A DNA stretch of 56,064 bases from a virus (IMGVR_UViG_3300024500_000038:1-56064), one strand, 5' to 3'; shown: positions 8,031 to 53,304, counted from the first letter of the stretch. Numbers and translations are program-made. The notes: generated by a model not told the origin, from the letters alone.

Positions 8031-8088
8031 CGATCTTTTGCTGCACAGCCTTGAATCCGGGATGTGCAGCAGACTTCTTACTATTCAT
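7918..8088 (-). CDS. 56-aa basic protein (not in ORF track)
   Basis: MNSKKSAAHPGFKAVQQKIAKKQGIPMDRAGAILASASRKAGPAAKRKNPRLNKVR; GGAGG SD; start overlaps the stop of the giant gene. Confidence 0.8.
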   Translation of the reverse strand: MNSKKSAAHPGFKAVQQKIAKKQGIPMDRAGAILASASRKAGPAAKRKNPRLNKVR

Positions 8089-19847: not shown

Positions 19848-21161
19848 TTACAACCTTATCTGCTCAATAGAACCAATACCACGATTAGCATCAATAGGTG
19901 GAAGGAAACCACCAGCCAATGGCATTTGTCCTAGTGATGGCCTACGACGACTAAATTGAGGCATAGATACTCCAGGTTCCTGACCGAAACCAATGCCATT
20001 AAGATCTATTGGATGGGTACGAATAGGAGCCATTCCAGGATCAGCACCGGTTACACCGTAACCTCTTGCCGGAATATTAAACGGTGGAAGAATCTGGTCT
20101 ATAGGAACTGGTGGGTTAAACCCGTCACCCATAGGTTCAATGTCATCGGCCGATTTATCACCGTACATATCCATGAAACGGTTCATGTCACGGCGGCTTT
20201 GTTCCATACCCATTGCCGTACCGGCTAGGTTTGCAATGCCACCCATTGCCATGGCCTCACGATCACGGTTAGCCTGGCTAATAGCCTGATTCTGTCGTTG
20301 CTCAGCAGAGTTCATGTTGTACAAGTTTTGGTCCACATTGAACATGCCTTGCCGACCAGTGTTTACATAGCGGTCGCCGCGATTGATCTGATTACCAATC
20401 GCACCTTGTAGTTGACCAATGAGTTGAGGTTGCATCGCAAGGTTACGCCCGGCGAGGTCGTAAGCACCTTGCGCCATACCACTGACGGCAGCTTGGTTGA
20501 TACCACCATAGCCAGACAATGCCTGTCCGCCACCAATCATTCCGCCTGTCGCACGCATACGTGATTCGGCAGCGCGGCGTGCGGCTTCGGTGCCTGCGGC
20601 AGCACCTGCCATCTGCGTCGTACCGTAACTAGAACTAAGGCCACGATTCGAAAGGTCTTGTAGACGCCCGATGGTTTCTTCCATCATCGGGTTATAACGG
20701 TCAAGCATTGACTGACCAGTGCCGATGTCGGCACCGTATGCGCCACGCATATTTGCTATATTGGCTTTTGCCTCACCCATCGCTATCTGTTCTGGGCTAG
20801 GTCCACGATTGCCGCCACCAAACAATGTCCTACCTAGAGATGATATTCCTTTGGATAGGAATGGCAAAGCGGCCATGCCAAGCTGTACTGCATTAACTCC
20901 AGGAATAGCCATCCCAAGAGCCTTCATTCCAGCTCCGCCTAATGCTTGGCGTAGAGCGTATTGTCCAAGCTGACCTGTCCCGCCAAAGTTATTTCCAAAC
21001 GCTTGATTTAAAAGATACTGTGGACCAATCTGCCTAGCAGTACTACCGAGCATGCCAAGTAGACCGTTAGGTTGCCCCATTGCCGCCTGTCCTGCACGTA
21101 TACGTCGGGCTAAGTCTGGAAACTGTTGCTCAACTGTGCTATCTGGTCCATTTGTACTCAT
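19848..21161 (-). CDS. putative internal virion / ejection protein
   Basis: Gly/Met/Ala-rich with hydrophobic segments; ATG 21161 overlaps upstream stop. Confidence 0.6.
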   Translation of the reverse strand: MSTNGPDSTVEQQFPDLARRIRAGQAAMGQPNGLLGMLGSTARQIGPQYLLNQAFGNNFGGTGQLGQYALRQALGGAGMKALGMAIPGVNAVQLGMAALPFLSKGISSLGRTLFGGGNRGPSPEQIAMGEAKANIANMRGAYGADIGTGQSMLDRYNPMMEETIGRLQDLSNRGLSSSYGTTQMAGAAAGTEAARRAAESRMRATGGMIGGGQALSGYGGINQAAVSGMAQGAYDLAGRNLAMQPQLIGQLQGAIGNQINRGDRYVNTGRQGMFNVDQNLYNMNSAEQRQNQAISQANRDREAMAMGGIANLAGTAMGMEQSRRDMNRFMDMYGDKSADDIEPMGDGFNPPVPIDQILPPFNIPARGYGVTGADPGMAPIRTHPIDLNGIGFGQEPGVSMPQFSRRRPSLGQMPLAGGFLPPIDANRGIGSIEQIRL

Positions 21162-21550
21162 TACGCCACCTTCAACCAACCACTGGTTGTCCCTATAGTT
21201 ACTCCGATAAACATTACTGTTGCGTACCTCGTTGCGAGACTACTGAAACCTGCTGGCGCAAAGACACTTTCTCCAGAAATAGGAGTAAAAGTCACGGCGT
21301 TAGCCGAAGTATCTGTCTTCACCACAACTAGCAGTTTACCGCCAGCAGCCCTACCGGAAGGTAACGTAAGCACTACGGCGCCACTTGTAGCGTCAACCGC
21401 AACTAAGCTGTTGTAATCAACCAAAGTCTTGCTTGCTGTTACATTCAGTTGCCTAGATAACGTAAAGCTGTAGTTCTCAGGGGCAACACCTACGGTCAAT
21501 GTTGTGCTTGCCGTATCTCCAGATGAACCACCTACTAGTACTGAACTCAT
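21161..21550 (-). CDS. small tail-associated protein
   Basis: VDATSGAVVLTLP...VKTDTSANAVT beta-rich motif common in tail proteins. Confidence 0.55.
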   Translation of the reverse strand: MSSVLVGGSSGDTASTTLTVGVAPENYSFTLSRQLNVTASKTLVDYNSLVAVDATSGAVVLTLPSGRAAGGKLLVVVKTDTSANAVTFTPISGESVFAPAGFSSLATRYATVMFIGVTIGTTSGWLKVA

Positions 21551-24500
21551 ACTCTTGGAATCCTCGCATCTGAAGAATGCACATGGGTGGCATATATTAC
21601 TCCGGGCGTGCGGCCGGATCCGGAAAGACTAATTTGCACACATTGTGAAAATACATCGCGATACACATCACGCAAAGCGATTGTCTTGTTTTGCCCCCCA
21701 GTAAATGTGAAAGAACTAGGTGTAGCGGCTGGACTAAAGATGCCATCAGATGACACTGATTGAATGTTGTAGTTCACTGTGTGGTCAACCAGATGTACAA
21801 AAGCACCATCATTTGAAAAGCCAGGATTTGCAACCTCAGCTCCACCCACAGTTGTCGATATCCTAAACTTATTCTTAGTCAAACCCGTGGCAAGCACGTA
21901 GTAGTTAGTGCCAGTGGTTACGACGCCTGACGTTCGCGTGAAACGTATGAGGTCGCCGGCCTGGAGATCTTGCGTGGCGAAGAAGTCGTTGCCAGTAGAA
22001 GGTTGCGTGTACTTAAACGACTTAGCCTTTGACTCATAATGGACATTAACCTGACTTACCCTGTTGAGGTTATAGTAAGCAATACCCTCGCTGTATGTCT
22101 GCCCGTACTGCCTTGTAGTCAATGTCCAGTTAATAGGTGTAGGATTGGATGTCGGATACAGAATGCGATCAGCAGTGCCAACTAGTTTGTATATCTGGCC
22201 AAACTCTGTGCCTATATACATTGTCGAGGTATCTTCACCGCCGGTCAAAGCAGCCGCAGCGGTAAAACCTGTGGTCGTAGACGTAAGCTCCGGAGCTAAC
22301 CATCGAGTCCAACCGCCTGTTCTAAGATCGTAAACGTATGCCGCAGAGTTCAGTGTGTCATATGTGGTCGGTGCAAACACAAATAATCGCATATCGTGTG
22401 CAAAGAACGCAATGTTCTTGAAAGGCGCCGCGGCGAGGTCGGCACTATTCATACTACTGTTCATACTGAGAAGCTTTCGCAATTGAATACTCTTGTTCTC
22501 AGGAACACCATTATTGAACTCTAGAACACCTTGCGGTGACATCCACATAAGACGTCCGAATAGACTTATCGTGCCGCGCGGTGATACGCATCCAACAGAT
22601 GGTTCTCGAAGCATTGACTGAATAGTAAAGTTTGTTGGATCAAAGCCAAGTACAGGTAGTACAGAATTTTCCCTTAGTACTAGAAGGACTGCGCTTGTAG
22701 TATTGTTGACGAACATCCCGTCACCTGCATAACTGAGCAGGGCTGTAATCTTTTCGTTGTCATACTTACTACTGACAGTGAACGACGTACCCTTCGTAAA
22801 GATATTAGGATCGGATTGATCAGGGACTAACGTCGTGTATACAGGCGCCTCATTGATACCGTTAAGCATCCACGTCGCATACACGGTGTTATCCTTGGCT
22901 AGGAACAATCGACGTGAATGTTCTGTTATTGCAGTACAACCAATTGGGACGATGTCACGACCACTCTCAAATGGGTACCCGGGTTCATAAGGGCCAGCCT
23001 CATAAAGGATGTCAGCATCCGGGACTCGATCTATAAACTTGATACGTTTAAAGGCAGACCCTGCAGTAACCGACGTGTATTCGGCACGCCAGTTTTTACC
23101 AATAGTAGCCGAGACTGCATCAGATGGTATTACTGCAATAAGCCGCAGGCGTCCATCCGGAAATACACCCTGGCCTCTACGATAGATACATATCCAGCTG
23201 TACTCAAGACCAGAATAGGCGCAAGTATGCTGGACCCATATAGGAAACGGCGCACTGGTTACAGACTTTATCGGGAATGTAAGTGTTGTTGGTACATAGG
23301 CAGTCACAGCAACGGTACGCGTAGTCCCAGTAGTGTCAACGTAGACCACAGAACCAGTTGCAGAGGAGACTACACGTTTCTGGTCAAGTGCTGGAACAGT
23401 GTTTGTAAAGTCCTGACCAACAGGGGTAGCTGCAACAATTTCAGTGGTGTCATATCTCAGATCAAGGTTATTGTTGTTACTGTCTGCTGGATTCAGTATT
23501 AACTCAGCCATACTCATAGCTGCGGTAGTCGTGACACTCTTACTTGGCAGACTTGGAAGTGATTCAACACCCTGAGCGTAAACTTCGTTTTCAATGTAGT
23601 ACGGTGGGCGTTCTACGCCACCCTCAGTCTTCCATCGAGTGAATACGTATTCGTACGTCACGTCAGGCGTCAATCCACCATCAGTTGTAAGTTGTCCTAT
23701 GGACATCAAGACTGTGTCATGCGTTGTATCAAAGTCTTGCTCAAGTCTGACGTAAACAGATGCAACGTTGTTTCGGTTGGCCTGGGATATACCAAAGATA
23801 TTCCAAGACATGTATCCATACTTAGGATCGTAAATGCCGTACCCTGTCCAGTTGATCGTACTAGATCCGGTATTCTTGATGCCTAGTGACATGTAAGGCG
23901 GGTTTGCTCTATATGCTTCTGGAAACTCCACTTGCAGGCTGACGGTGTCGCGATTACTTAGATCCGTAACAGCCAGGTTACTTATACGAACAGCAACACC
24001 TTTGACGTAACCTGCTCGTAGAGGAGCCAGCGATGTAGTCTGCTGGCGGGTGCGAATTTGTACTAACCCAGATGCGTTAGTTACTTCTGAGTTAGGCGCT
24101 AAATTACTGAGAATTGGATGCAATGCAATATTGTCTACTAGGATTCCACGACTATCTCCAGTCGTAGATTGTGCTGCATTAGCGGTCTGAAGCTTAATAC
24201 GTATTTGAGTCAACGTCCCACGGAATGCACGGAAGTCTATGAATAGACTGATCTCTTTCCAGTCGGTGACGCTCTGTGCAACAGTAGGCTGGACAATTTG
24301 TGTAAACACACATCCGACAATAGGGTTACCACCAGAATCTAATCCTGTGACTGTTACAAATACGCCATGGTTACGACGACTATCCAGTGAGTCGTTGTTG
24401 TACATCAAGCAACGCAAGCTGTACATTCCAATCTTATACGTAGTGCCGTCGTACGTATACGTCGGCGCTGTCATTGTCTTTTGAATCCAGTCGCCGCCAG

Positions 24501-25329
24501 CGTCAAGCAGTAATGCCTTATTACCAGTCTGGGAGGCGTAGTTAGATATCTTTTCTGCCCCACTCAATGCCGCATCAATAAGTGTGTACTGTTTTACGGT
24601 AGCCAGGCCGGCTCCACTATTCTGCCAAACTGTAGCATTAGGCACAGCATTATCGGTGTCGGATTCAAACGTGTAACCTTCCGACGTAGCGGTAGCCGTA
24701 ATCATCTCGTATGAAGCAGCTAACGAACTGAAAGCCATGCCAAAGGTTGTCGCAGCTGAATCGTTATCGATGTCAGATGCGCCTGTTATTCCTTTAGCCT
24801 CATATGTCTTTACGTTGGCAACAGGCTGTATATGATCTTTACCATTGATCATAGGTGCCTTAGGCATGAACACTTGTGTAACATTGGTGCCGTTGTACTT
24901 CCATATAGTCCCACCACTAGCACCAGGAATTCCGTATATGTACTTACCGTGCTGGACCATTCGTGAGTCTTGTGGGTATCCGTTAACTACAGTCAATGGT
25001 GTCAAAGCTGTAGCCCCATCAGACCACTCACTGATCGATGTAGTTGGAACAGTAGGGTCACCGCTAATAACCAGTATTTTTGATGCTACATTGGACGACT
25101 GTCTGTATTGCAGCATGTTGTGAATAGGATCACTTGGGCTAGTCAATTGCGCGTGCATACCAGGCCTGGTCGTCAAAGCACCACCATCGTTCCATAGGTT
25201 GTCTGCTACCTGTACATAACCATCCTGCAACCTATTTGGCGTCGTGTTAGTATCGATGCCAATAAACTGACGATCGCCAAACGTATATGTTTGACGCACA
25301 GCTTGTGCGTTACGTGTTGTATCTGCCAT
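21547..25329 (-). CDS. tail nozzle / tubular protein B-like with large insertions
   Basis: N-terminal FIGIDT...ADNLW..GALTTRPG; propeller-like GCVSPRGT and AYVYDLRTGGWTRW; position. Confidence 0.7.
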   Translation of the reverse strand: MADTTRNAQAVRQTYTFGDRQFIGIDTNTTPNRLQDGYVQVADNLWNDGGALTTRPGMHAQLTSPSDPIHNMLQYRQSSNVASKILVISGDPTVPTTSISEWSDGATALTPLTVVNGYPQDSRMVQHGKYIYGIPGASGGTIWKYNGTNVTQVFMPKAPMINGKDHIQPVANVKTYEAKGITGASDIDNDSAATTFGMAFSSLAASYEMITATATSEGYTFESDTDNAVPNATVWQNSGAGLATVKQYTLIDAALSGAEKISNYASQTGNKALLLDAGGDWIQKTMTAPTYTYDGTTYKIGMYSLRCLMYNNDSLDSRRNHGVFVTVTGLDSGGNPIVGCVFTQIVQPTVAQSVTDWKEISLFIDFRAFRGTLTQIRIKLQTANAAQSTTGDSRGILVDNIALHPILSNLAPNSEVTNASGLVQIRTRQQTTSLAPLRAGYVKGVAVRISNLAVTDLSNRDTVSLQVEFPEAYRANPPYMSLGIKNTGSSTINWTGYGIYDPKYGYMSWNIFGISQANRNNVASVYVRLEQDFDTTHDTVLMSIGQLTTDGGLTPDVTYEYVFTRWKTEGGVERPPYYIENEVYAQGVESLPSLPSKSVTTTAAMSMAELILNPADSNNNNLDLRYDTTEIVAATPVGQDFTNTVPALDQKRVVSSATGSVVYVDTTGTTRTVAVTAYVPTTLTFPIKSVTSAPFPIWVQHTCAYSGLEYSWICIYRRGQGVFPDGRLRLIAVIPSDAVSATIGKNWRAEYTSVTAGSAFKRIKFIDRVPDADILYEAGPYEPGYPFESGRDIVPIGCTAITEHSRRLFLAKDNTVYATWMLNGINEAPVYTTLVPDQSDPNIFTKGTSFTVSSKYDNEKITALLSYAGDGMFVNNTTSAVLLVLRENSVLPVLGFDPTNFTIQSMLREPSVGCVSPRGTISLFGRLMWMSPQGVLEFNNGVPENKSIQLRKLLSMNSSMNSADLAAAPFKNIAFFAHDMRLFVFAPTTYDTLNSAAYVYDLRTGGWTRWLAPELTSTTTGFTAAAALTGGEDTSTMYIGTEFGQIYKLVGTADRILYPTSNPTPINWTLTTRQYGQTYSEGIAYYNLNRVSQVNVHYESKAKSFKYTQPSTGNDFFATQDLQAGDLIRFTRTSGVVTTGTNYYVLATGLTKNKFRISTTVGGAEVANPGFSNDGAFVHLVDHTVNYNIQSVSSDGIFSPAATPSSFTFTGGQNKTIALRDVYRDVFSQCVQISLSGSGRTPGVIYATHVHSSDARIPRV

Positions 25330-26966
25330 TAGTCACAAGGTCCTCGGTTCCATTGTATTGCACTAGGTGGTTCCTGTTTGTACACGGGCAATGGCAGCTG
25401 ATTGTTGGTGTAGTTACATGAAACGTTATTTGCTACCGTATATACGTTTACTGGTTGATTATTACCAAGTATGTGTAATCTAAACACTGGCAGCGTATAA
25501 GGTAATACATAAAGACCTCTAGTTAAATTACCGTCCGGTAGCCAGTTATCGACGAGTGTTCCATTACTTGTAAACAAGTATGCTAATGTCTGTGGTTGCT
25601 TGAATGCAGATGATAGTGTGCCAAGTTTAGAGAAAGCATTGACGATAGTCTGTTCAACATTGTATGTCGGTACAACACATGTGTTGACTGTCCAATTACA
25701 GGTATTAGCATCAAACGGTATAGCCAGGTCATATATTCGATATACAGGAATAGTAAACGGGAATGGGTACGCTTGTTGGCTTACGCCATATCCATTTTGT
25801 ATCCAACCACATATAGTCTCATCAATGATCTGCCAAGGAGGACAAGTGCAAAGTTCTATGCCTCCGGACGTTGCATTGGCATTGATAGTGGCAATACCAG
25901 TAATGCTTGACGCACTAGACAAAACACATTGCCCAGTACTAGTAATAGACGCTACGCCGGTTATGCTTGAGGTGACTTGTTTCTCACAAGTACCCACGAC
26001 AACTATAGATCCAACACCTGTAATTGATGAGCTTACTTGTACTTCTTTTGTAAACGTACCAGTAACGGATGCTGTGCCTACAAGGCTTGATGAACCACGT
26101 TTTTCAGTGACACCATCCGCCGATATGGAAGCAACGCCAGTAACATTCGCTGCACCGTTTACAACACCACCAATGACGGCATTTGCTGTAACTGTTGCTA
26201 TACCACTAATACTAGCCGTGGCTCGTTTTTCAACAACGCCTACGGATGTTATCGATGCAACACCAGATACATTGGCTGTAGCCGTTACAATGCCGGAGAT
26301 TATTGCATCTGCATTGACTGTTGCAACGCCTGATATTGATGACGTGGCTCGTTTTTCAACTAGACCAGCGGATGTTATTGAAGCAACACCACTTAGTGAA
26401 CCGGTTCCGAGTTTCTCAACAACACCCGCACTAGCAACGGTTGCGATACCGGTAAGTGAACTACTCCCTAGTTTTTCAACAACACCTGTCGATGTTATTG
26501 ATCCAATGCCTGTAAGAGAACTGCTTCCTAGTTTCTCAACAATACCCGCGCTGGCAACTGTTGCAACACCATTGATACTTGCTGTCGCATTGACAACTCC
26601 AACAATGGATCCATTGGCTGTAACGGTTGCAATACCAGATAGTGACGATGTTGCTAGTTTTTCAACAACACCTGCACTAGTGATGGAAGCAATACCACTT
26701 AGTGAACTGCTGCCTCGTTTTTCAACGATAGCGGACGATGTAATGGTGGCAACACCAGTAAGTGATGATGCGCCTAACTTATCTACTTGACCGGCTGATA
26801 CTACTGTTGCAACACCAGAAGGATTAGATGTTGCTCGTTTTTCTACTAGACCTGCTGACGTAACAGCAGCCAGTGCAACAAGTGACGCACTGGCTGATAT
26901 GACCCCGGCGGTACTACCTTTACCAAAGGCCCATTTACCCCACCAGGAAATATAACCGTCAGCCAT
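25329..26966 (-). CDS. repeat-containing tail fiber-like protein
   Basis: More than 15 imperfect 19-21 aa repeats (GVATVASAGVVEKLGSSSLT-type). Confidence 0.65.
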   Translation of the reverse strand: MADGYISWWGKWAFGKGSTAGVISASASLVALAAVTSAGLVEKRATSNPSGVATVVSAGQVDKLGASSLTGVATITSSAIVEKRGSSSLSGIASITSAGVVEKLATSSLSGIATVTANGSIVGVVNATASINGVATVASAGIVEKLGSSSLTGIGSITSTGVVEKLGSSSLTGIATVASAGVVEKLGTGSLSGVASITSAGLVEKRATSSISGVATVNADAIISGIVTATANVSGVASITSVGVVEKRATASISGIATVTANAVIGGVVNGAANVTGVASISADGVTEKRGSSSLVGTASVTGTFTKEVQVSSSITGVGSIVVVGTCEKQVTSSITGVASITSTGQCVLSSASSITGIATINANATSGGIELCTCPPWQIIDETICGWIQNGYGVSQQAYPFPFTIPVYRIYDLAIPFDANTCNWTVNTCVVPTYNVEQTIVNAFSKLGTLSSAFKQPQTLAYLFTSNGTLVDNWLPDGNLTRGLYVLPYTLPVFRLHILGNNQPVNVYTVANNVSCNYTNNQLPLPVYKQEPPSAIQWNRGPCD

Positions 26967-45064: not shown

Positions 45065-45523
45065 ATGGATGAAACAATTAAGGTCACATTTTGGCCTATG
45101 GATAACATGCAACCAACGCTGCCAACTAAAGCGACTAATGGTGCTGCTGCGTACGATCTTTATGCATGTGTAGAAAAACCAGTGCCGATTCAACCAGGGA
45201 AACGTGTGTTGATCGAAACTGGTTGGAAGTTAAAGATGCCTGTGACGATGGCTGCTTATGTCATGCCACGTAGCGGATTAGCATGGAAAAACGGCGTAAC
45301 TGTGCTGAACGCACCAGGTTTAATTGATAGTGATTACCGTGGTTCCATCAAAGTGTTATTAATCAATCATGGCGACGAACCATTCTTCGTATTGCCAAAC
45401 ATGCGCATAGCGCAGCTGATGTTTGTTCCCTCTGCAAATACCGAATTGGTAGTGATCGAAACAGGATCTCTATTTGATGATACGCAACGTGGCGCCGGCG
45501 GGTTTGGGAGTACTGGTGTATGA
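45065..45523 (+). CDS. dut: trimeric dUTPase
   Basis: AAYDL, PRSGLA, GLIDSDYRG, RIAQL, RGAGGFGSTG motifs. Confidence 0.97.
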   Translation: MDETIKVTFWPMDNMQPTLPTKATNGAAAYDLYACVEKPVPIQPGKRVLIETGWKLKMPVTMAAYVMPRSGLAWKNGVTVLNAPGLIDSDYRGSIKVLLINHGDEPFFVLPNMRIAQLMFVPSANTELVVIETGSLFDDTQRGAGGFGSTGV

Positions 45524-46140
45524 GGCAGCGAGCGCGATTAATTTGGATTACTGAAAATGCAGAGAAGCACATTGCTTACTGCGCGCGCGTGAGTAACCCA
45601 AAGAACCAGGAAAACGACGAGTTTGGCAAATTGCTAAAGTATTGTAAAAAGCATGGTCACTGGTCAGTATTTGAGATGGCTAGTGCATGCTTTGAACTTA
45701 AAACCACAGTAGCAATTGCTCAGCAGTTAGTACGACACAAGAGTTTTTCTTTTCAAGTGTTCTCTCAACGTTACAGCCCTGTGTCAGAGAAACCTGATCC
45801 TATTCGATTACGCCTAAAACATCCGACCAACCGTCAATCATCCATTGATGTAAGTGATACTGGCATTCTGCATGAACTCGAGGCCCTAGCTGATGAGTCT
45901 GTAGCTCTTGCCTATGATACGTACGACAAGATGATTGCAGGCGGTGTGGCACCAGAAACAGCACGTAACGTATTGCCTATGTGTACACCTACTACACTGT
46001 ATATGGTTGGCACGTTGCGTAGCTGGATCCATTACCTCGAGACTCGCCTTGCTGAAGGGACACAGGGCGAACATCAAGAACTGGCTAAACTTATTCACGC
46101 AGTTCTACGGAATCGATGTCCCACGATATGGAGTGAATAA
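45520..46140 (+). CDS. thyX: FAD-dependent thymidylate synthase
   Basis: GHWSVFE, QLVRHKSFSFQVFSQRY, PETARNVLP. Confidence 0.96.
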   Translation: MRQRARLIWITENAEKHIAYCARVSNPKNQENDEFGKLLKYCKKHGHWSVFEMASACFELKTTVAIAQQLVRHKSFSFQVFSQRYSPVSEKPDPIRLRLKHPTNRQSSIDVSDTGILHELEALADESVALAYDTYDKMIAGGVAPETARNVLPMCTPTTLYMVGTLRSWIHYLETRLAEGTQGEHQELAKLIHAVLRNRCPTIWSE

Positions 46141-46141
46141 C

Positions 46142-46405
46142 ATGGAAGAGCAGGAAGTACCAGAAGTCAAAGACGTGGCGACTGCCAACAATGAGTTGCA
46201 GTATCCATTGTCGGAACGCGAACTCGAAGTCCTCGAGATGCTGCCACGTAACCGCACAGCTAAGATGATGGGCGTCGCTATGGGAATCAGTCACCGTACG
46301 GTGCAGTTCCATATGGACAACCTATATTGGAAGCTCGGTGTGTCTGGCCTCAACGCCAAGGATAGAGCCATAAAGAAAGGCCGATCGCTCGGCCTAATCA
46401 AATAA
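46142..46405 (+). CDS. LuxR-type HTH regulator
   Basis: LSERELEVL...MGISHRTVQFHMDNLYWKLGV; GGAG SD before ATG 46142. Confidence 0.9.
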   Translation: MEEQEVPEVKDVATANNELQYPLSERELEVLEMLPRNRTAKMMGVAMGISHRTVQFHMDNLYWKLGVSGLNAKDRAIKKGRSLGLIK

Positions 46406-47092: not shown

Positions 47093-47358
47093 TCTTCACC
47101 ATCCAAAACAGACTTACTGATTACAGCAGAAAATGAGCTAATAACGTCATCTGCCAATTCAAGCAGGACGCGATTTGGGATCTTATAACTAGTGGTCAAA
47201 CCAAGCAGCAGATTCCATGCCTTTACTGGACTGAGTTGTGTTGCGCATGTGATTCCGTCAGTGCCGACGTACTCTACATCGTATTCTGCCAGGCCATTGC
47301 GGTGGCTTAGGCGGATAGTGACGTCACTATCGCGCCCGGTCTTACAAATCGTGATCAT
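47089..47358 (-). CDS. hypothetical protein
   Basis: 89 aa, AAGGA SD, coupled to ssb. Confidence 0.7.
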   Translation of the reverse strand: MITICKTGRDSDVTIRLSHRNGLAEYDVEYVGTDGITCATQLSPVKAWNLLLGLTTSYKIPNRVLLELADDVISSFSAVISKSVLDGEE

Positions 47359-47425
47359 TTGGTATCCTTTAACAGTAAAGTGTAATCACCTTACGTCAAC
47401 ATGATACCACGCCCAGCAAGTATTA

Positions 47426-47962
47426 CTAGAAGTTTACGCGTAAGATCCCGCCAAACTGTCCAAGCTCGTTCCATTCACGCATTTTGCGGTAAACGCCATC
47501 TCCGTCACGGTTGACTTCTGTAACATCTGATGGTTCTGGGCCAGTGTTACCCTCAATCGTCCATACACCGTTCTCGAATGACTGCGTCACAATACCGATG
47601 TGTGCAATGCGACATTTGGTGCGACTGTAGAACAATGCTAGGTCACCTCTGCGCGCCGGCGTGTGGTCCAAGGCAAGCTGCGCTCTTGGTATCCAAAGAT
47701 CGTTTGCTTTTGCATAACGCTCCCAGTCCGGTGTAAATCCAGATCGTGGGAACCCAGAGACGTAAGTTGTGTTTAATTCTGTGGCAGCAATCTTCATGCA
47801 CGCGCGAACAAAAGCTGCGCAGTATGGTGATCCTGGAGTCAGGGCAGGCACAGCCATCTTTTGAAACATCTCTACCTCGTCGCCGCGGTTTTCACCTTCT
47901 TCTCGGACGTGTAGATATCTCTTTGCTACTTCAACTGTTTTCAGAGCTATTTGCCGACTCAT
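47426..47962 (-). CDS. CHAP-domain endolysin/amidase
   Basis: PYCAAFV (Cys), HIGIV (His), IEGNT. Confidence 0.85.
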   Translation of the reverse strand: MSRQIALKTVEVAKRYLHVREEGENRGDEVEMFQKMAVPALTPGSPYCAAFVRACMKIAATELNTTYVSGFPRSGFTPDWERYAKANDLWIPRAQLALDHTPARRGDLALFYSRTKCRIAHIGIVTQSFENGVWTIEGNTGPEPSDVTEVNRDGDGVYRKMREWNELGQFGGILRVNF

Positions 47963-48278
47963 TGATATCCTCTTGTGTAAAGATTTCTGGCCAGACTTGC
48001 CAATCCGTCGCCGTTAAGTCATCAAGTGAGATTATCCAATCCCACGATTCAAACAATGGTAAGTCCGGCGCACCCGGGCTAATAGAGATAATGTTTTCCT
48101 CAGGAACTCCACGAATACATATCCCCTGATTCAACTCCAACTCAAAATCCTCATCAGACACAAATAATCCGCTATGCAGGTTGTTGCCGTTGAATATGGA
48201 GTAAAGATAGCCATCATCCGACATCCTGTGACAAAACCTGCCAGCAATTAAGTATGGCCGGATCTCTTCAAAGGTCAT
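47931..48278 (-). CDS. DUF2829/Tad2-like protein
   Basis: MTFEEIRPYLIAGRFCHR...SLDDLTATDWQV; ATGA-coupled start at 48278. Confidence 0.55.
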   Translation of the reverse strand: MTFEEIRPYLIAGRFCHRMSDDGYLYSIFNGNNLHSGLFVSDEDFELELNQGICIRGVPEENIISISPGAPDLPLFESWDWIISLDDLTATDWQVWPEIFTQEDINESANSSENS

Positions 48279-48448
48279 GGGGTGCGTTTGCGAAGCTCCT
48301 TGCCGCATGCTGCAAACAATTGTTTGAGTTGTGTCGTAGACATTAGTTCGACTTCGCGATCCAGATCCAAACCTAGCATGTATACCGACAGTGAAGTGAC
48401 TTCTCGATCTACCAGTTTCAATTTCTTCCGTAACCATTCACGCAACAT
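48275..48448 (-). CDS. hypothetical protein
   Basis: AGGAGG SD before ATG 48448. Confidence 0.7.
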   Translation of the reverse strand: MLREWLRKKLKLVDREVTSLSVYMLGLDLDREVELMSTTQLKQLFAACGKELRKRTP

Positions 48449-48682
48449 TATCCACCTCCTACTGGCCATTCTACAACAAACAGGGACCACGTATACCTAC
48501 GCAGTCCCTGCCATTTGTGTTGTTGTTGATACCGGGTAACCCGGTTTCCAATAAGCTCACTCAGTTACGATGTGGCAATTGATTGTACCTATGAGTGCGA
48601 TAATATATGCGTCGAAACGCGATGAAAACTTAAAAGTCCACCCATCATGCCAAAACCTATGACAATTGAGTCGAGCGAATCT

Positions 48683-48707
48683 AAAGCCCCTTCACAGAGG
48701 GGCTTTT
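48683..48707. terminator. intrinsic terminator hairpin
   Basis: AAAGCCCCT-tcacag-AGGGGCTTTT next to the thermonuclease stop. Confidence 0.75.
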
Positions 48708-48711
48708 CTAA

Positions 48712-49059
48712 TTAGCGTTTACCGCCTTCGTAATCAACACCGTGACCCGCTAGTTTGAGCGCGTCGGCAAGGCTCTGACCATCAGAAACAACTGTTCCTA
48801 GAATACGTCCGTACTTGTCTTCGCGGTGGTTTTTCACGCTGATTACAACGTCTGACTTCTTGCTAGTGACCCAATTCCACGTAAACTGCTTGGCTGTTAC
48901 TCCAGCCTCAGTATCCTTCTCAGGGCAGTTAATATGCTCAAGGCGAATCTTCTTACCCGCAAGTATTACGCCGAAGCCCAGGTCAAGATCAGCCTTAAGC
49001 GTGTCGCCATCTACAACAGATATATTCTTCAATGAGTATTGATATAGAGTTGATTTCAT
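48712..49059 (-). CDS. thermonuclease (SNase-like)
   Basis: VVDGDTL...DLGFG...IRLEHINCPE...DKYGRILG. Confidence 0.9.
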   Translation of the reverse strand: MKSTLYQYSLKNISVVDGDTLKADLDLGFGVILAGKKIRLEHINCPEKDTEAGVTAKQFTWNWVTSKKSDVVISVKNHREDKYGRILGTVVSDGQSLADALKLAGHGVDYEGGKR

Positions 49060-49442
49060 CGGTGCCTTGCCGCCTTACGTGCAATGGATTTTGGCTGTGC
49101 TACGAACTGTTTGCCTGCGCGATTACCGGCAGCTTTAGCTCGGTTAGTAGCAGCTACTTCACCTTTAGACAATGAACCCCACGCCTTGTCTGGTAGGTAG
49201 CGTTTCTTTCCTTCACTAGGCGTTCCATCGGATGTGCGCCACTTCTGATCAGTCCATTTTGCTAAACTGTTGTCAGCCTTCTTTGGACCTACGTAGCCGC
49301 CACCAGACTTCTTGTATTGCTGTGTAGCAAGCTGCGCTTTGCGAGCAGACCACTCACCAGGATCGCCACCCTTTGTACCAGCTTTAACACTTGCGACGAT
49401 ACGTTTCCACTTAGCGGGATCACGCTTTACAGCACTAGACAT
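49056..49442 (-). CDS. basic phage protein (DUF5872-like)
   Basis: GEWSARKAQL...YKKSGGGY...SLAKWTDQKWRT...RYLP. Confidence 0.8.
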   Translation of the reverse strand: MSSAVKRDPAKWKRIVASVKAGTKGGDPGEWSARKAQLATQQYKKSGGGYVGPKKADNSLAKWTDQKWRTSDGTPSEGKKRYLPDKAWGSLSKGEVAATNRAKAAGNRAGKQFVAQPKSIARKAARHR

Positions 49443-49471
49443 GTCTCAGTATAGCAAAAGCCATAAACAGC

Positions 49472-49500
49472 AAAAAGACCAGCATGGCGGACTGGTCTTT
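49472..49500 (-). terminator. intrinsic terminator
   Basis: On -: AAAGACCAG-N9-CTGGTCTTTTT. Confidence 0.65.
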
Positions 49501-49551
49501 CTGTTTGCAGAGTTTGTGTGTGTCGGGACTGACCGGGTTTCTGGCCTTTCC

Positions 49552-49728
49552 TTATTGATCTTTCGATCGATCAGATTCTACCATCTTGTTGACATCAACA
49601 ATATGGTCGTACACGTCCTTGCGCATAAACATAACTGCGTCCCCTTTAATAAGTGATGCGTCTTTTAACTTATTAGTAAAGGGTTTAGCAAAGGCAACTA
49701 GCCTAGTTCGTTTCTGGCCATTTTTCAT
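49552..49728 (-). CDS. 58-aa hypothetical protein (not in ORF track)
   Basis: MKNGQKRTRLVAFAKPF...DRSKDQ; AAGGGA SD; fills the gap before the terminator. Confidence 0.5.
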   Translation of the reverse strand: MKNGQKRTRLVAFAKPFTNKLKDASLIKGDAVMFMRKDVYDHIVDVNKMVESDRSKDQ

Positions 49729-49996
49729 TAGTGCTATCCCTTGTTAATACTGTTCGCTTTGCAGTGTTAAGTTTGTGACGATGCAGTGCGATGTGTACTG
49801 CCTCGATCATCTCATCAAACATGGGGTTGTTTATTTTCCCAGATACAACAACTTCACCATTGTCTTCCATTACAAACTTAACAAACGGCTCATCTGGATT
49901 AGCGTTAAAGTAAGTGACCAGCATACCAGCAGCTTCGTGTAGATCAGGATCGATGTCCTCGTCAGTTTTGCACACAGGCACAATTTTAAAATTCAT
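49703..49996 (-). CDS. hypothetical protein
   Basis: 97 aa, GGAGG SD. Confidence 0.7.
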   Translation of the reverse strand: MNFKIVPVCKTDEDIDPDLHEAAGMLVTYFNANPDEPFVKFVMEDNGEVVVSGKINNPMFDEMIEAVHIALHRHKLNTAKRTVLTRDSTNEKWPETN

Positions 49997-50181
49997 TCCA
50001 TTACCTCCCAGTCATCATGTAATAGGTCATCTATTGTTGGCTTACCATGCAGTTTCTCGTCTTTGTAGCGACATATGATGACCCTCGAATCTACAACTAT
50101 TGCGTACGTTCCTGGCAGCCATCTAGCCTGGCGCACGCGCTTGCCGTCACGTAATGCCTGTAGGGCTTCAATACCTGTCAT
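49993..50181 (-). CDS. DUF2829/Tad2-like protein (minimal)
   Basis: EALQALRDGKRVRQARW...KPTIDDLLHDDWEV. Confidence 0.75.
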   Translation of the reverse strand: MTGIEALQALRDGKRVRQARWLPGTYAIVVDSRVIICRYKDEKLHGKPTIDDLLHDDWEVME

Positions 50182-50575
50182 TCACAGCCTCCCAAGCAAG
50201 TACAACCCAGTCCTTTGCCAATAAGTCTTCCAGGCTAAGATCCAGCGTATATGTGATGCATTCCATTATTCCTTCTGGACAACTGTAAGCTCGGACAAAC
50301 CATCTGTTTTCAATGTCGTAGTAGTACCAACACTGCCAACATTTACGTGTAAACGGCAATCCAGTCTTGATCAACTCCATGCAACTATCTAAGGAAGAAC
50401 GCTTGAGCTTAACCTCACCGTTACGCATAGCTGACTGGATCCTATATATGTGTGTTGTACTGACACTCCATTTACGAGCAACCGTTTTAACGTTTACGCC
50501 AGCCGTAAGCTCATCCTGAATCCCTTTAATGTCTTTCTCGCTTAACTTCCTACGGTTATCGGTACTAGTGGCCAT
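50168..50575 (-). CDS. HTH + DUF2829/Tad2-like fusion protein
   Basis: N: KLSEKDI...VKTVARKWSVSTTHIYRI; C: MELIKTGLPFTRKCW...LSLEDLLAKDWVV. Confidence 0.6.
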   Translation of the reverse strand: MATSTDNRRKLSEKDIKGIQDELTAGVNVKTVARKWSVSTTHIYRIQSAMRNGEVKLKRSSLDSCMELIKTGLPFTRKCWQCWYYYDIENRWFVRAYSCPEGIMECITYTLDLSLEDLLAKDWVVLAWEAVNDRY

Positions 50576-50894
50576 AGTATTCCTCGTCACCGCGAAGCTT
50601 AATTACAAAAGCCTTGTAGGCTTCCATAATCGTTTCATGATCGCCATCGAACTCATCAATCAGATACTTGGGGAACCGACCAACATAGAAACACAGGATC
50701 CAGTCATCGACTAGCAAAGCTTCCGCCAGATCGTCGATGTAAGGCTCATAGCTGCGGCGCCCATGCTCGATACAGTTCATCATCTGTGGAGAAATGGATC
50801 CGTCGCCATCCAGGCGACGAACCCTACGCGCGAGCGCACGCTGTGACATGCCAAGGGCCTCACGGCGCTGCTTGATGTACTCATGCCCCTTCAT
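50565..50894 (-). CDS. XRE-family HTH regulator
   Basis: IKQRREALGMSQRALARRV...ISPQMMNCIEHGRR...LAEAL. Confidence 0.85.
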   Translation of the reverse strand: MKGHEYIKQRREALGMSQRALARRVRRLDGDGSISPQMMNCIEHGRRSYEPYIDDLAEALLVDDWILCFYVGRFPKYLIDEFDGDHETIMEAYKAFVIKLRGDEEYYGH

Positions 50895-51141
50895 CTTTTA
50901 CCTCCACTCCCCAGATAGGCGATTTGCCCATCGGGTGCCATTTACCAAGGACCCAGCAAGGATCGCAAAACGTATCAGCCTCAATCTCAATCGTCTCAAG
51001 CAAATGCTCAGACGGACCGTTATGCATAACAAACATCAACTGTAATTCCGAATACCGCAGGTATTCATCATCATTCCAACAATCGAGGCGTGCAGGGTAC
51101 CCATGCATAATCCACTCCAACGCCTTACTGATCGTTACCAT
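50881..51141 (-). CDS. divergent DUF2829/Tad2-like protein
   Basis: TISKALEWIMHGYPARLDCWN...DTFCDPCWVL. Confidence 0.45.
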   Translation of the reverse strand: MVTISKALEWIMHGYPARLDCWNDDEYLRYSELQLMFVMHNGPSEHLLETIEIEADTFCDPCWVLGKWHPMGKSPIWGVEVKDEGA

Positions 51142-51403
51142 TGCGTACCTTTATCCCTAGCTTATGAAGCAAACCAACCTTCTCCTCTGGCCGAAATTCA
51201 GAGTAATCACCAAGCGCTTCAAGCGCATCGATAGCTTTGTGGATAGCCCACGTAACGTCACGCGTGTCCTTCAAGAACGACGCCGACTCATACAAATCAT
51301 CTACAACAATGTCCCTGCGCAGCTTCTCGTACGCGCTCTGGCACGCAAGCATAGACGCCAACACACTACGATACTGCGACCACGCAGCTTCTCTCTTATT
51401 CAT
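51125..51403 (-). CDS. hypothetical protein
   Basis: GGAGG SD; TGgTATACT promoter upstream (~51422-51430). Confidence 0.7.
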   Translation of the reverse strand: MNKREAAWSQYRSVLASMLACQSAYEKLRRDIVVDDLYESASFLKDTRDVTWAIHKAIDALEALGDYSEFRPEEKVGLLHKLGIKVRNGNDQ

Positions 51404-51444
51404 AACAAACCTCCACCCGCAAGTATACCATGCAATCGCGCATA

Positions 51445-51996
51445 CTACGCGACTTCATTACCCCATACGTCCCAGCCAGGGTACGGTCTACGCGCGAACA
51501 ACTCGATCTTACGCATGCCCGGATACAACTGATCTATACGCTCATGCACAGCATCAGGCTTCCTGCTATGCTCCATTCGCGGCGCCATAACTACCTGTCT
51601 GACGCTCTCGTCAGACAGCTTCAAAGGCCTACCAGACTTGCAAGGGCTACCAACCAACACAAGCTCCGTCGTAGGCTTTACAACGCTAGGACGGACGCCC
51701 TGCGCGCCCACAGGCGTACCATCCTGCTTCGTCTTCACCCACACAAAGCCAACCCCCCTATACGCTAAGCCCCAGCCTCGCAATAAGTCCAGCGCAGCGT
51801 CCAGACGCGGACCAGTAGCCCACATAAACACCACGCTGCGCGAATGCAACAGCTGCTGGACAGGCAACGCCAACAGATCAGCGTCGCTCATCGTTGGGTA
51901 GAACTTCGCGGCGGCGCCCCACTTATCCTGGCTACCGCTATACGACCACGGGGGGTCACACAACACTACGTCATACTGAACGGAAGGGAAATCCAT
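51445..51996 (-). CDS. MT-A70-family N6-adenine methyltransferase
   Basis: DPPW, FMWAT, FVWVKT, EHSRKPD, IELFARR, GWDVWGNE. Confidence 0.93.
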   Translation of the reverse strand: MDFPSVQYDVVLCDPPWSYSGSQDKWGAAAKFYPTMSDADLLALPVQQLLHSRSVVFMWATGPRLDAALDLLRGWGLAYRGVGFVWVKTKQDGTPVGAQGVRPSVVKPTTELVLVGSPCKSGRPLKLSDESVRQVVMAPRMEHSRKPDAVHERIDQLYPGMRKIELFARRPYPGWDVWGNEVA

Positions 51997-52140
51997 ATAC
52001 ACCTCGGTACGTTATAACATGGCTTCTACGGCGGGAGAAAGTCAATTTTGAGGAGATGTTCCGTAGGCGTGGGGATCGTAAGAAAAAAATAATAAGGGGG
52101 CGGGGGCTTGCCATACCCCCCTGCCACACACGGTGTGTGA

Positions 52141-52156
52141 GGGAGGGAGGGGAGGG
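52141..52156 (+). other. canonical G-quadruplex-forming motif
   Basis: GGG-A-GGG-A-GGGG-A-GGG. Confidence 0.6.
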
Positions 52157-52183
52157 AAGGCACGGCGTCGCGTGCGTAGGGCG

Positions 52184-52327
52184 GCCCGCGGTAGCGGGCT
52201 GCTTCTCTTGGAGGGGGAGGCTTCCCCCGAACGGAAGCCATGCGGACGCATGGCCGCAGCTCCGCGCGGATGCGCGGGGCTGTAGCTCGCGCGGTAGCGC
52301 GATCTATTCCCAGCCGCGGATGCGGCT
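52184..52327 (+). repeat. cluster 1 of five short hairpins with GC-GG(TA/AT/AC)-GC cores
   Basis: Hairpins at 52184-52199, 52237-52254, 52262-52277, 52287-52302, 52312-52327. Confidence 0.85.
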
Positions 52328-52447
52328 TGTTTGCGTTCCTGTTCAAAAGGCGGCGGCAGCCGACTTGCGAACAGGAGCATCCATCCCCCCAGCAAGTATG
52401 CGATACTGTCCCTGTTGGTGGTTGGAACACTCTGAAAGGAAACTAGT

Positions 52448-52828
52448 ATGGAAAAAGATAGAATGTTTGCTATTTGCCGTGCGGCGAATACCTACTTCAA
52501 GAATATCGGTCACATCGACTGGGCGACAGACCGACAGTGCAAGTCATGGAATGTGGACTATTGGCGCATAACGCAGTCCGACAATGATTTTGCTGAGCCT
52601 ACCGCGTACGTTGTCGAATTCGACCTTGCAGTCTTCACCGATTGTGAAGGCGTAGAAAGTACTTGTGAAGGTACTTGCGACATGGGCGAAAGTGAACAAT
52701 TCCGCATCCATGTAGAATCCGGTCACGACGCGGAATGTTTGATGAAATACGCGCTGGCCGACCCAGACTGCTGGATTATGTCCATCAGGTCGGAACCTGA
52801 TAGCGTGCGAAAGTGGACGACTAGATAG
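52448..52828 (+). CDS. hypothetical early protein
   Basis: AAGGA SD; acidic, 126 aa. Confidence 0.7.
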   Translation: MEKDRMFAICRAANTYFKNIGHIDWATDRQCKSWNVDYWRITQSDNDFAEPTAYVVEFDLAVFTDCEGVESTCEGTCDMGESEQFRIHVESGHDAECLMKYALADPDCWIMSIRSEPDSVRKWTTR

Positions 52829-52837
52829 TTTAGACTG

Positions 52838-52859
52838 CCTGCCCGGGCAACCGGGCAGG
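52838..52859 (+). repeat. hairpin CCTGCCCGG-gcaa-CCGGGCAGG (copy 1 of 3)
   Basis: Related copies at 53179-53198 and 53281-53298. Confidence 0.8.
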
Positions 52860-52880
52860 TTTGAAGGAAAGGAAAGTAGA

Positions 52881-53168
52881 ATGAAACTCAAAACAATTGC
52901 AGGATTAGACGGGTACGAATTTGCTGGTGCTATCAGCAAGGCGACAGATAACGCGGAAATTGCCGAAGCGGCATATCAGCGTGCTAGAAATGCCAAACAT
53001 AACGCCAATTATCAAATTGAATGTCCGACAGTCTTTATCAGCGAAGCGGCCGCGGATTGGGATACTGTAATTTCATTGTCTGATATTCGCGCATTGGTAG
53101 CAAGCGTTGAAATTATCGCCGCAGAAAACGGTATCTTGCTGCCGCAGAATTGGCAGGTAATCTATTGA
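52881..53168 (+). CDS. hypothetical early protein
   Basis: AAGGAAAGGA SD; 95 aa. Confidence 0.7.
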   Translation: MKLKTIAGLDGYEFAGAISKATDNAEIAEAAYQRARNAKHNANYQIECPTVFISEAAADWDTVISLSDIRALVASVEIIAAENGILLPQNWQVIY

Positions 53169-53272
53169 TGCGGCGGAATAGCCCGGGCAACCGGGCTAGA
53201 CTTCGCGAGTTTATAGGTTTTGTTCTAATATTCGCGCTCGTAGTATTGGCCAGTGGCCTAAATAACAATTGA
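53168..53272 (+). CDS. 34-aa hydrophobic peptide (not in ORF track)
   Basis: MRRNSPGNRARLREFIGFVLIFALVVLASGLNNN; TGATG coupling; ends just before a terminator. Confidence 0.5.
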   Translation: MRRNSPGNRARLREFIGFVLIFALVVLASGLNNN

Positions 53273-53280
53273 AACTTTAC

Positions 53281-53304
53281 AGCCCGGGCGACCGGGCTTT
53301 TTTT
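53281..53304 (+). terminator. intrinsic terminator
   Basis: AGCCCGG-gcga-CCGGGCT followed by a T-run. Confidence 0.85.

Follow-up and report, generated by a model that had tools for sequence, protein, structure and literature searches.

Tad2 is a homotetrameric protein that acts as a sponge for the immune signal glycocyclic ADP-ribose (gcADPR; 10.1101/2023.05.01.538930). Cyclic dinucleotides are bound through the Tad2 insertion, also in a homotetramer (10.1101/2023.11.15.567273), and further homologues, homotetramers as well, bind His-ADPR, cUMP/cCMP, and N7-cADPR (10.1101/2025.08.24.671296). AcrIIA7 is a homotetramer with the Tad2 fold that holds trans-activating CRISPR RNA (tracrRNA) in a positively charged groove (PMC13133391). 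The DUF2829/Tad2 family (PF11195) is already known, as are the way in which it acts as a sponge and the ligands that it can bind. Here we describe four DUF2829/Tad2-like proteins, A, B, C, and D, encoded in IMGVR_UViG_3300024500_000038:1-56064, an entire IMG/VR virus record of 56,064 bases that we refer to as the window.

The four genes lie on the minus strand, and ORF calling recovered all of the open reading frames (ORFs) that an initial annotation of this DNA had proposed. A (47931-48278) is a 115-amino-acid (aa) paralogue in which a long insertion separates the N-terminal helix from the C-terminal motif. B (49993-50181) is a minimal DUF2829 protein of 62 aa with no insertion. C (50168-50575; 135 aa) has a basic helix-turn-helix domain in its N-terminal half (about residues 1-61; 50393-50575), then a GEVKLKRSSL linker, and a DUF2829 domain in its C-terminal half (about residues 62-135; 50168-50392). 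D (50881-51141) is an acidic paralogue of 86 aa with a C-terminal tail (GKWHP...IW). We confirmed that all four are members of the DUF2829/Tad2-like family, as the annotation had claimed: profile links were found for every copy and a fold match for A and D.

Membership of the four proteins in the DUF2829/Tad2 family

The resemblance of the motifs between pairs of copies was not, by itself, beyond chance. BLASTP of B against C and of B against A aligned only the 12-13 residues of the C-terminal motif (E 0.011 and 0.012, respectively), and B against D gave a 24-residue match that was out of register (E 0.023). Alignments of families with hhalign were discarded as a link because they were weak: A and C shared 14 columns (P 0.0034), D and C shared 63 collinear columns (P 0.0016, probability 16%), and A against D gave nothing. 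The evidence for membership comes from Pfam scans, from hidden Markov models (HMMs) built without the family in question and run against the 770 stop-to-stop frames of the window, and from fold models of A and D. The curated cut-off of PF11195 is 25 bits for a profile of 73 positions, and B alone passed it in the direct scan.

B scored 27.9 bits (E 3.5e-6), with residues 1-60 on profile positions 1-72, and the HMM that left out its family found it at 9.2e-7. All four of its matches among PDB sequences were Tad2; the best were the ModTad2/MoTad2 and Tad2_71 chains (E 0.021-0.022), which covered B residues 6-31 only.

C aligned with PF11195 across the whole domain at 13.8 bits, below the cut-off. 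Among 5.8 billion proteins searched, 43 relatives were found; of the 42 family members scanned, 19 had PF11195 at E ≤ 0.01 (best 1.1e-9) and 32 had HTH_7. Because both domains occur across the family and the HMM built without C found it at 3.9e-9, C is predicted to be a helix-turn-helix-DUF2829 fusion. The initial annotation was right to place a DUF2829 domain in the C-terminal half; the helix-turn-helix identity of the N-terminal half had escaped it. That half matches phrog_4629 (3.3e-5), phrog_517 (4.6e-5), and Mor (19.4 bits), and the near-invariant linker is the most conserved part of the family. Against PDB sequences, the family profile gave helix-turn-helix matches only, and the DUF2829 domain (residues 72-129) matched AcrIIA7 chain 9kzr_A (residues 94-152) weakly and without significance (E 0.19). 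Other fusions carry different helix-turn-helix parts: HTH_23 precedes PF11195 in a related viral locus (L006:3283-3693), and two more were recognized by eye (L008:3441-4004 and L012:3273-4004). As a single sequence, C retrieved no viral locus; the alignment of its family retrieved 17.

D itself had no PF11195 match at E ≤ 1, and its link to the family runs through relatives and fold. It has five close relatives and matches the viral ORF L006:5329-5565 (BLASTP E 7e-11, 31% identity over 78 aa, tail motif GK[WF]HP...IW included), which scores 29.0 bits on PF11195. Among 12 related ORFs scanned on this profile, three passed the cut-off, seven fell below it, and two had no match; tblastn against loci fetched with B also revealed weaker D-like ORFs adjoining B-like genes. 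The HMM without the D family found D at 0.0015, and at 1.5e-9 when distant D-like sequences were included. The AlphaFold2 model of D, made from a 10-row alignment, had a predicted local distance difference test (pLDDT) score of 87.3. With Foldseek, at least the first 16 ranks were all Tad2 chains (probability 1.00, E 0.08-0.4). With VIA-align, ranks 1-10 were all Tad2/AcrIIA7 (Z 7.2-8.8, root-mean-square deviation 1.9-2.5 Å over 63-66 residues), and the next unrelated chain had a Z of 4.2. An AcrIIC5 match of the D family profile in the PDB (E 1) was taken as chance.

The annotation had called D degenerate. This applies to its C-terminal motif; elsewhere D belongs to a conserved subfamily, whose invariant residues include F58, C59, C62, and W63. 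In the close subfamily, TFCDPCW replaces the pocket-helix motif, and both cysteines are invariant in all six sequences. The N-terminal tryptophan motif that was proposed as common to the four copies was found in B, C, and D; A has no Trp there.

A is the least certain of the four. On PF11195 it scored 14.5 bits, over the C-terminal motif only (the last 16 profile positions), and its family profile had no match among PDB sequences. It has four close relatives, and a profile search of 1.84 billion representatives gave three proteins at E ≤ 0.001. Relatives of A do align with PF11195 over the full domain: P0054 at 26.7 bits, and P0053 and P0047 at 23.7 bits each, the last being 62% identical to A. 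The invariant residues of the subfamily include W81, D92, and W93. VIA-align of the A model (pLDDT 69.2, a moderate confidence) placed Tad2/AcrIIA7 in all of ranks 1-10, with 17-24% identity. The uncertainty arises because the HMM that left out the A family missed A (E 0.74), the model is only moderately confident, and the margin in Z is narrow.

Foldseek E-values exceeded 0.001 for both models (best 0.015 for A and 0.081 for D); the top ranks were nonetheless all Tad2. In the ESM Atlas, the clusters closest to A and D (score 0.90 each) had PF11195 in part of their members, 41% and 13%, respectively, for the first hits, and neither protein had a PHROG or NCBIfam match. HMM and other searches over the ORFs of the window found no fifth DUF2829 copy.

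Divergence, ligand site, and possible functions

A maximum-likelihood tree was made from 44 DUF2829 domains of the window, related loci, and SPO1, with the truncated row L004:4001-4252 left out. The copies of the window were never sisters, and four changes were needed. Each grouped with genes of other phages in a supported clade: A at 100/100, C at 100/99, D at 100/98, with B falling into a clade of 20 rows at 98/96. The copies belong to four subfamilies that separated anciently. Recent tandem duplication was rejected, since there are no DNA repeats between the copies and their clades are separate.

Sister phages gain, lose, and recombine the copies, which diverge faster than their neighbours. 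In L017, D (60% identity), B (43%), and A (82%) are present and C is absent, and the flanking methyltransferase, CHAP peptidase, and single-stranded DNA-binding protein (SSB) are 95%, 92%, and 95% identical to those of the window. L016 has D and A and lacks C and B; L015 has D and C and lacks B and A. In L001 and L002, C and B are present, D was not found, and A is absent, absences that are uncertain because the records are short or incomplete. The separate clades, the variable presence, and the faster divergence fit the diversified set of copies that the annotation had proposed. In B-type genes, the middles are hypervariable, and the N-terminus (MTGIEALQAL...) and C-terminus (DDWEVVE) on either side are almost fixed.

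Multiple copies occur in related viruses. Ten related viral records had 2, 2, 3, 2, 2, 6, 5, 7, 5, and 4 matches (E ≤ 0.001) to a model from our alignment A5, counts that lean upward because some of these records contributed sequences to the model. Of the 17 viral loci with a C-type gene, 10 had one to three extra DUF2829-like ORFs within 3 kb and seven had none. Another DUF2829-like subtype (MKFELAFEALRHGY...DRWQVGVY), whose C-terminal extension is longer, is seen at L006:3690-4004, L010:3689-4237, and L011:4906-5232. The L010 copy reads through into a B-type copy, possibly as a two-domain protein, and a Pfam scan of L006:3690-4004 gave no match.

Alignment A5 joins the four families to the reference SPO1 gp34.65 (Tad2), taken from its GenBank record. 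In SPO1 Tad2, the main gcADPR contacts are W25, N26, W73, and D79, with S76, T78, and others in addition (10.1101/2023.05.01.538930). The HgmTad2 equivalents of the four main contacts are W21, N22, W87, and D93, and its W21A/N22A and S90A/T92A/D93A mutants are reported to lose binding (10.1101/2023.11.15.567273). At W25, N26, W73, S76, T78, and D79, A has D21, D22, W81, S84, D, and D87; B has W21, L22, a Gly or a gap, T, D, and D52; C has W, Q, no Trp, S, E, and D; and D has W22, N23, no Trp, E, D, and T57. In C and D there is no Trp in the 20-25 residues or so upstream of the motif, which makes the result at W73 independent of the alignment. Since no copy has the full set of four main contacts, binding of type I Thoeris gcADPR in the known way is unlikely for all of them. 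The net charge is -18 for A, -9 for D, -5 for the DUF2829 domain of C, +7 for its helix-turn-helix half, and about neutral for B.

We regard it as evenly balanced whether A, B, C, and D together make up a counter-defence kit, a set of fast-evolving early genes whose products bind ligands with several specificities. In favour of such a kit are the family and fold matches, the old and separate subfamilies, the variable presence and fast divergence of the copies, their number in related viruses, their place near the head of the leftward gene block, the activities described for the fold, the acidity of A, D, and the DUF2829 domain of C, and the contigs from RNA libraries. Each copy would form a homo-oligomer and bind a host immune molecule where its subunits meet, as in Tad2, ModTad2, and HgmTad2/AcrIIA7. 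The ligand is probably not type I Thoeris gcADPR held as in known sponges; the incomplete site argues for other signals derived from nucleotides or for a kind of molecule still undescribed. C would probably join a binding and oligomerizing domain to DNA binding, a fusion that opens a regulatory reading. The basic charge of its helix-turn-helix half suggests that C could autoregulate the cluster, as helix-turn-helix anti-CRISPRs do, or bind DNA in response to a ligand.

Several points weigh against a counter-defence kit. The set W25, N26, W73, and D79 is complete in none of the four copies of alignment A5. In 10.1101/2023.11.15.567273, only about 1% of the Tad2 proteins analyzed were predicted to be unable to bind gcADPR, which makes the four copies atypical and places them outside the canonical sponge type; a sponge function may be absent altogether. 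In SPO1 Tad2, helix alpha2 contributes to the dimer interface; it lies in the insertion that is missing from B. The Z values of the A model (5.8-7.2) barely exceed that of an unrelated phage neck protein (5.6), in a model of moderate confidence. Among tested sponge homologues of three families, 19 of 84 inhibited none of seven systems (10.1101/2025.08.24.671296). Finally, the contigs of four river metatranscriptome runs, which match the region at ≥99% and cover A in all four runs, D in two, and B or C in three, may stem from DNA carried over into the libraries and are only consistent with transcription of the cluster genes.

It is unlikely, though the best placed of the alternatives, that the DUF2829 fold serves here mainly as an oligomerization or sensor module of phage gene regulators and not as a sponge. 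C and the XRE-type protein encoded between D and C would then control early transcription, and the small copies would perhaps be partners or anti-partners of C. The HTH_7 domain found across the C family, the different fusions in L006, L008, and L012, the position of the XRE gene, and the strong conservation of the GEVKLKRSSL linker fit such a role, as do weak matches to the "transcriptional regulator" phrog_643 (B at E 0.007, C at E 0.023) and the recurrence of the D-(XRE)-C-B order as D-C-B in L023 and L024. However, a DNA-binding domain is present in just one of the four copies, the strong acidity of A and D is a further objection, and the variable presence of the copies among sister phages would be expected of accessory genes more than of core regulators. 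Nor did a repeat search of 47300-53300 reveal an operator-like repeat upstream of the cluster.

We consider it improbable that C and the related fusions are one-component sensors, in which a host immune signal, bound by the sponge-type domain, switches DNA binding by the fused domain. If they were, the phage would read the alarm state of its host and adjust early transcription, for example of D, B, and A, and the conserved D-(XRE)-C-B cluster would be more than a set of sponges: a counter-defence module under the control of a signal.

Just as improbable, in our estimate, is that at least one copy acts like AcrIIA7, by binding a host defence RNA or protein (e.g., a CRISPR guide component) and not a small signal. 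AcrIIA7 itself offers the precedent, the domain of C matches 9kzr_A weakly, and the models of A and D fit AcrIIA7 as well as they fit Tad2 (8kbi_A, Z 6.4 and 8.3). Nevertheless, the match to the AcrIIA7 sequence is not significant alone, and the acidity of A, D, and the C domain, with B about neutral, argues against a basic RNA groove.

That the copies are decaying remnants of former sponges, with the ligand site lost and little or no function, is very improbable: by our count each copy lacks at least two of the four main gcADPR contacts and the C-terminal motif of D is degenerate, but all frames are open, orthologues are conserved (43 for C, 4-6 for A, at least five for D), each subfamily keeps its own invariant residues (those of A and D, for example), the D model is confident, the genes are translationally coupled, and contigs from RNA libraries cover them.

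A counter-defence kit of ligand binders would matter for several reasons. New bacterial immune signals, His-ADPR and N7-cADPR among them, have come to light with the help of Tad2-type sponges. Four deep subfamilies side by side, each without the known ligand site, point to undescribed ligands or targets, and the copies are ready-made baits for finding them. The helix-turn-helix fusion hints at a regulatory use of the Tad2 fold, and the sets of 2-7 copies that related uncultured phages carry suggest that phages diversify counter-defence generally in this way, a route that has had little study. In the printed literature, we found no multi-copy DUF2829/Tad2 arrays, although supplementary tables of the Tad2 papers may list multi-copy phages. 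Nor did we find there deep subfamilies in one genome that all lack the known ligand site, or a recurring central helix-turn-helix fusion.

Neighbouring genes and genome setting

All of the genes and of the terminator- and promoter-like sites of the cluster given here are on the minus strand. The XRE-type helix-turn-helix gene (50565-50894; HTH_31, 4.6e-5) lies between D and C, overlaps both, and matches phrog_3 and phrog_8, which are transcription regulators. It is conserved in L015 (84%) and in L016 and L017 (64%). A 26-nucleotide (nt) inverted repeat (50432-50457/50681-50706), 81% complementary and with arms 223 nt apart, has one arm within the helix-turn-helix part of C and the other within the XRE gene. 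The frames of B, C, and D each run a few bases into those of their neighbours, and their ribosome-binding sites are of the GGAG type. B is followed, with an ATGA overlap, by a 97-aa ORF (49703-49996) for which no family match was found; its relatives come after DUF2829 genes in L015, L016, L017, L005, and L009.

In B-type genes, the codons of the C-terminal motif DDWEV(V)E hold GGGAGG about 9 nt upstream of the next gene (49993-50020 in the window), and the closing GAA-TGA creates an ATGA in which stop and start overlap; the ends are of the same kind in L006, L008, L009, and L012. Since these codons also serve the start of the next gene, the conservation of the motif may be partly at the nucleotide level, serving translational coupling in the arrays.

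A is preceded by a basic 57-aa ORF (48275-48448) with an AGGAGG ribosome-binding site. This ORF is not a DUF2829 protein and had no PHROG or NCBIfam match; it is conserved alongside A in L016 and L017 (75% identity). The ATGA stop/start overlap that couples it to A supports the start of A at 48278 and, with the upstream AGGAGG site, makes a longer, 168-aa reading of A unlikely.

Consensus matches gave two terminator-like hairpins and a promoter-like site. One hairpin, of 13 pairs (49471-49503), is downstream of the block D-XRE-C-B-g49703-g49552, and the other (48687-48700) is upstream of the 57-aa ORF and A, as is the promoter-like site (48600-48628). The latter two suggest that A lies in a transcription unit separate from the D-XRE-C-B block. 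Promoter-like sites were rarer than in shuffled sequences (5 vs. a mean of 7.8), so that the transcription units are only suggested. Positions 48470-48676 were covered in none of the four RNA-library runs, and this gap was not read as a transcript boundary. The contig of run X15 (518 nt, 47930-48447) spans the 57-aa ORF and A end to end; those of the other three runs end at 48426-48435.

The window covers nearly all of the genome of an uncultured tailed phage; its ends are linear, and CheckV estimates its completeness at 90%. The PHROG matches are those of a tailed double-stranded DNA phage and comprise Erf, DnaB helicase, large terminase, portal, major head protein, dUTPase, ThyX, SSB, an endonuclease, a DNA methyltransferase, and an endolysin of the CHAP type. 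The minus strand carries almost all genes from about 52.0 kb down to 8.1 kb, and A, B, C, and D sit within 4 kb of the start of this leftward block, amid genes for DNA metabolism and small accessory genes.

The same DNA is present in river metagenomes. Among 50,697 records of cultured phages, megablast found no match to the 4.1-kb region and tblastn (E ≤ 0.01) none to proteins A, B, C, and D. The sole relative of the large terminase in genome collections (L022:2001-3701, 71% identity) is on a 61-kb contig of a metagenome-assembled genome labelled Armatimonadia. This is probably a phage contig binned with that genome, hence we make no host inference; the genome had no DUF2829 match at E ≤ 0.001.

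Other features of the window lie outside the cluster. A small plus-strand island (45065-46405) inside the minus-strand block encodes dUTPase, ThyX, and, judged by eye, a LuxR/GerE-like helix-turn-helix ORF; ThyX is directly flanked by DUF2829 genes in L006 and L010. An ORF of 3301 aa (8081-17986, minus strand) had no PHROG match at E ≤ 1e-5, and the same was true of large ORFs of the structural block (18029-19843, 19848-21179, 21547-25329, and 25329-26966). An 18-nt GC-rich palindrome (AGCCCGGGCAACCGGGCT type) occurs three times (52840-52857, 53180-53197, and 53281-53298), beyond 52 kb, where G+C is higher (0.55-0.57) and the GC skew is reversed. The third copy is followed by a T run and resembles a plus-strand terminator.

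Comparison with described systems

AcrIIA1 and AcrIIA13-15 are reportedly anti-CRISPR proteins with a fused helix-turn-helix autorepressor domain. The domain order and the type of helix-turn-helix may differ in C, for which no operator was found. Their architecture is nevertheless shared by C, in which a helix-turn-helix is joined to an anti-defence-type domain, within a small early-gene cluster that has a further XRE regulator. AcrIIA15 chain 8jfr_B was listed at E 0.79 in the search of PDB sequences.

HgmTad2/AcrIIA7 (8KBI, 8KBJ, 8KBK, and 9KZR) and SptTad2 (8WJD) have the same fold as our models (Z 5.8-6.5 for A and 7.7-8.8 for D). These proteins show that a variable insertion decides a second specificity, for cyclic dinucleotides, and that RNA is among the possible ligands of the fold. 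An additional N-terminal domain, termed the "head", is present in pdAcrIIA7; C likewise has an extra N-terminal domain, there a helix-turn-helix. Unlike HgmTad2/AcrIIA7, the proteins of the window are acidic or neutral, and the sequence similarity is not significant. ModTad2/MoTad2 (PDB 9EIB and 8V3E) and Tad2_71, the best PDB sequence matches of B, are Tad2 homologues with other ligands.

SPO1 Tad2 (gp34.65; PDB 8SME/8SMF/8SMG and 8WJE), the founder of PF11195, differs from the copies of the window in several ways. It has 89 aa and an insertion, whereas B has 62 aa and none, and the insertion of A is longer. D has an extra C-terminal tail, and CxxC replaces the L-A-x-D of the pocket-helix motif. 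C has its N-terminal helix-turn-helix domain, and four copies share one genome. All of them nevertheless belong to the same Pfam family as SPO1 Tad2, B directly and A, C, and D through relatives. They also resemble it in being small proteins, acidic in A and D, encoded by a phage outside the structural module. The likeness in fold extends to the N-terminal helix, the antiparallel sheet, and the short helix with a D-x-x-x-x-D-W motif, and the comparison with SPO1 Tad2 gave Z values of 7.0-7.2 for the A model and 7.2-8.1 for the D model.

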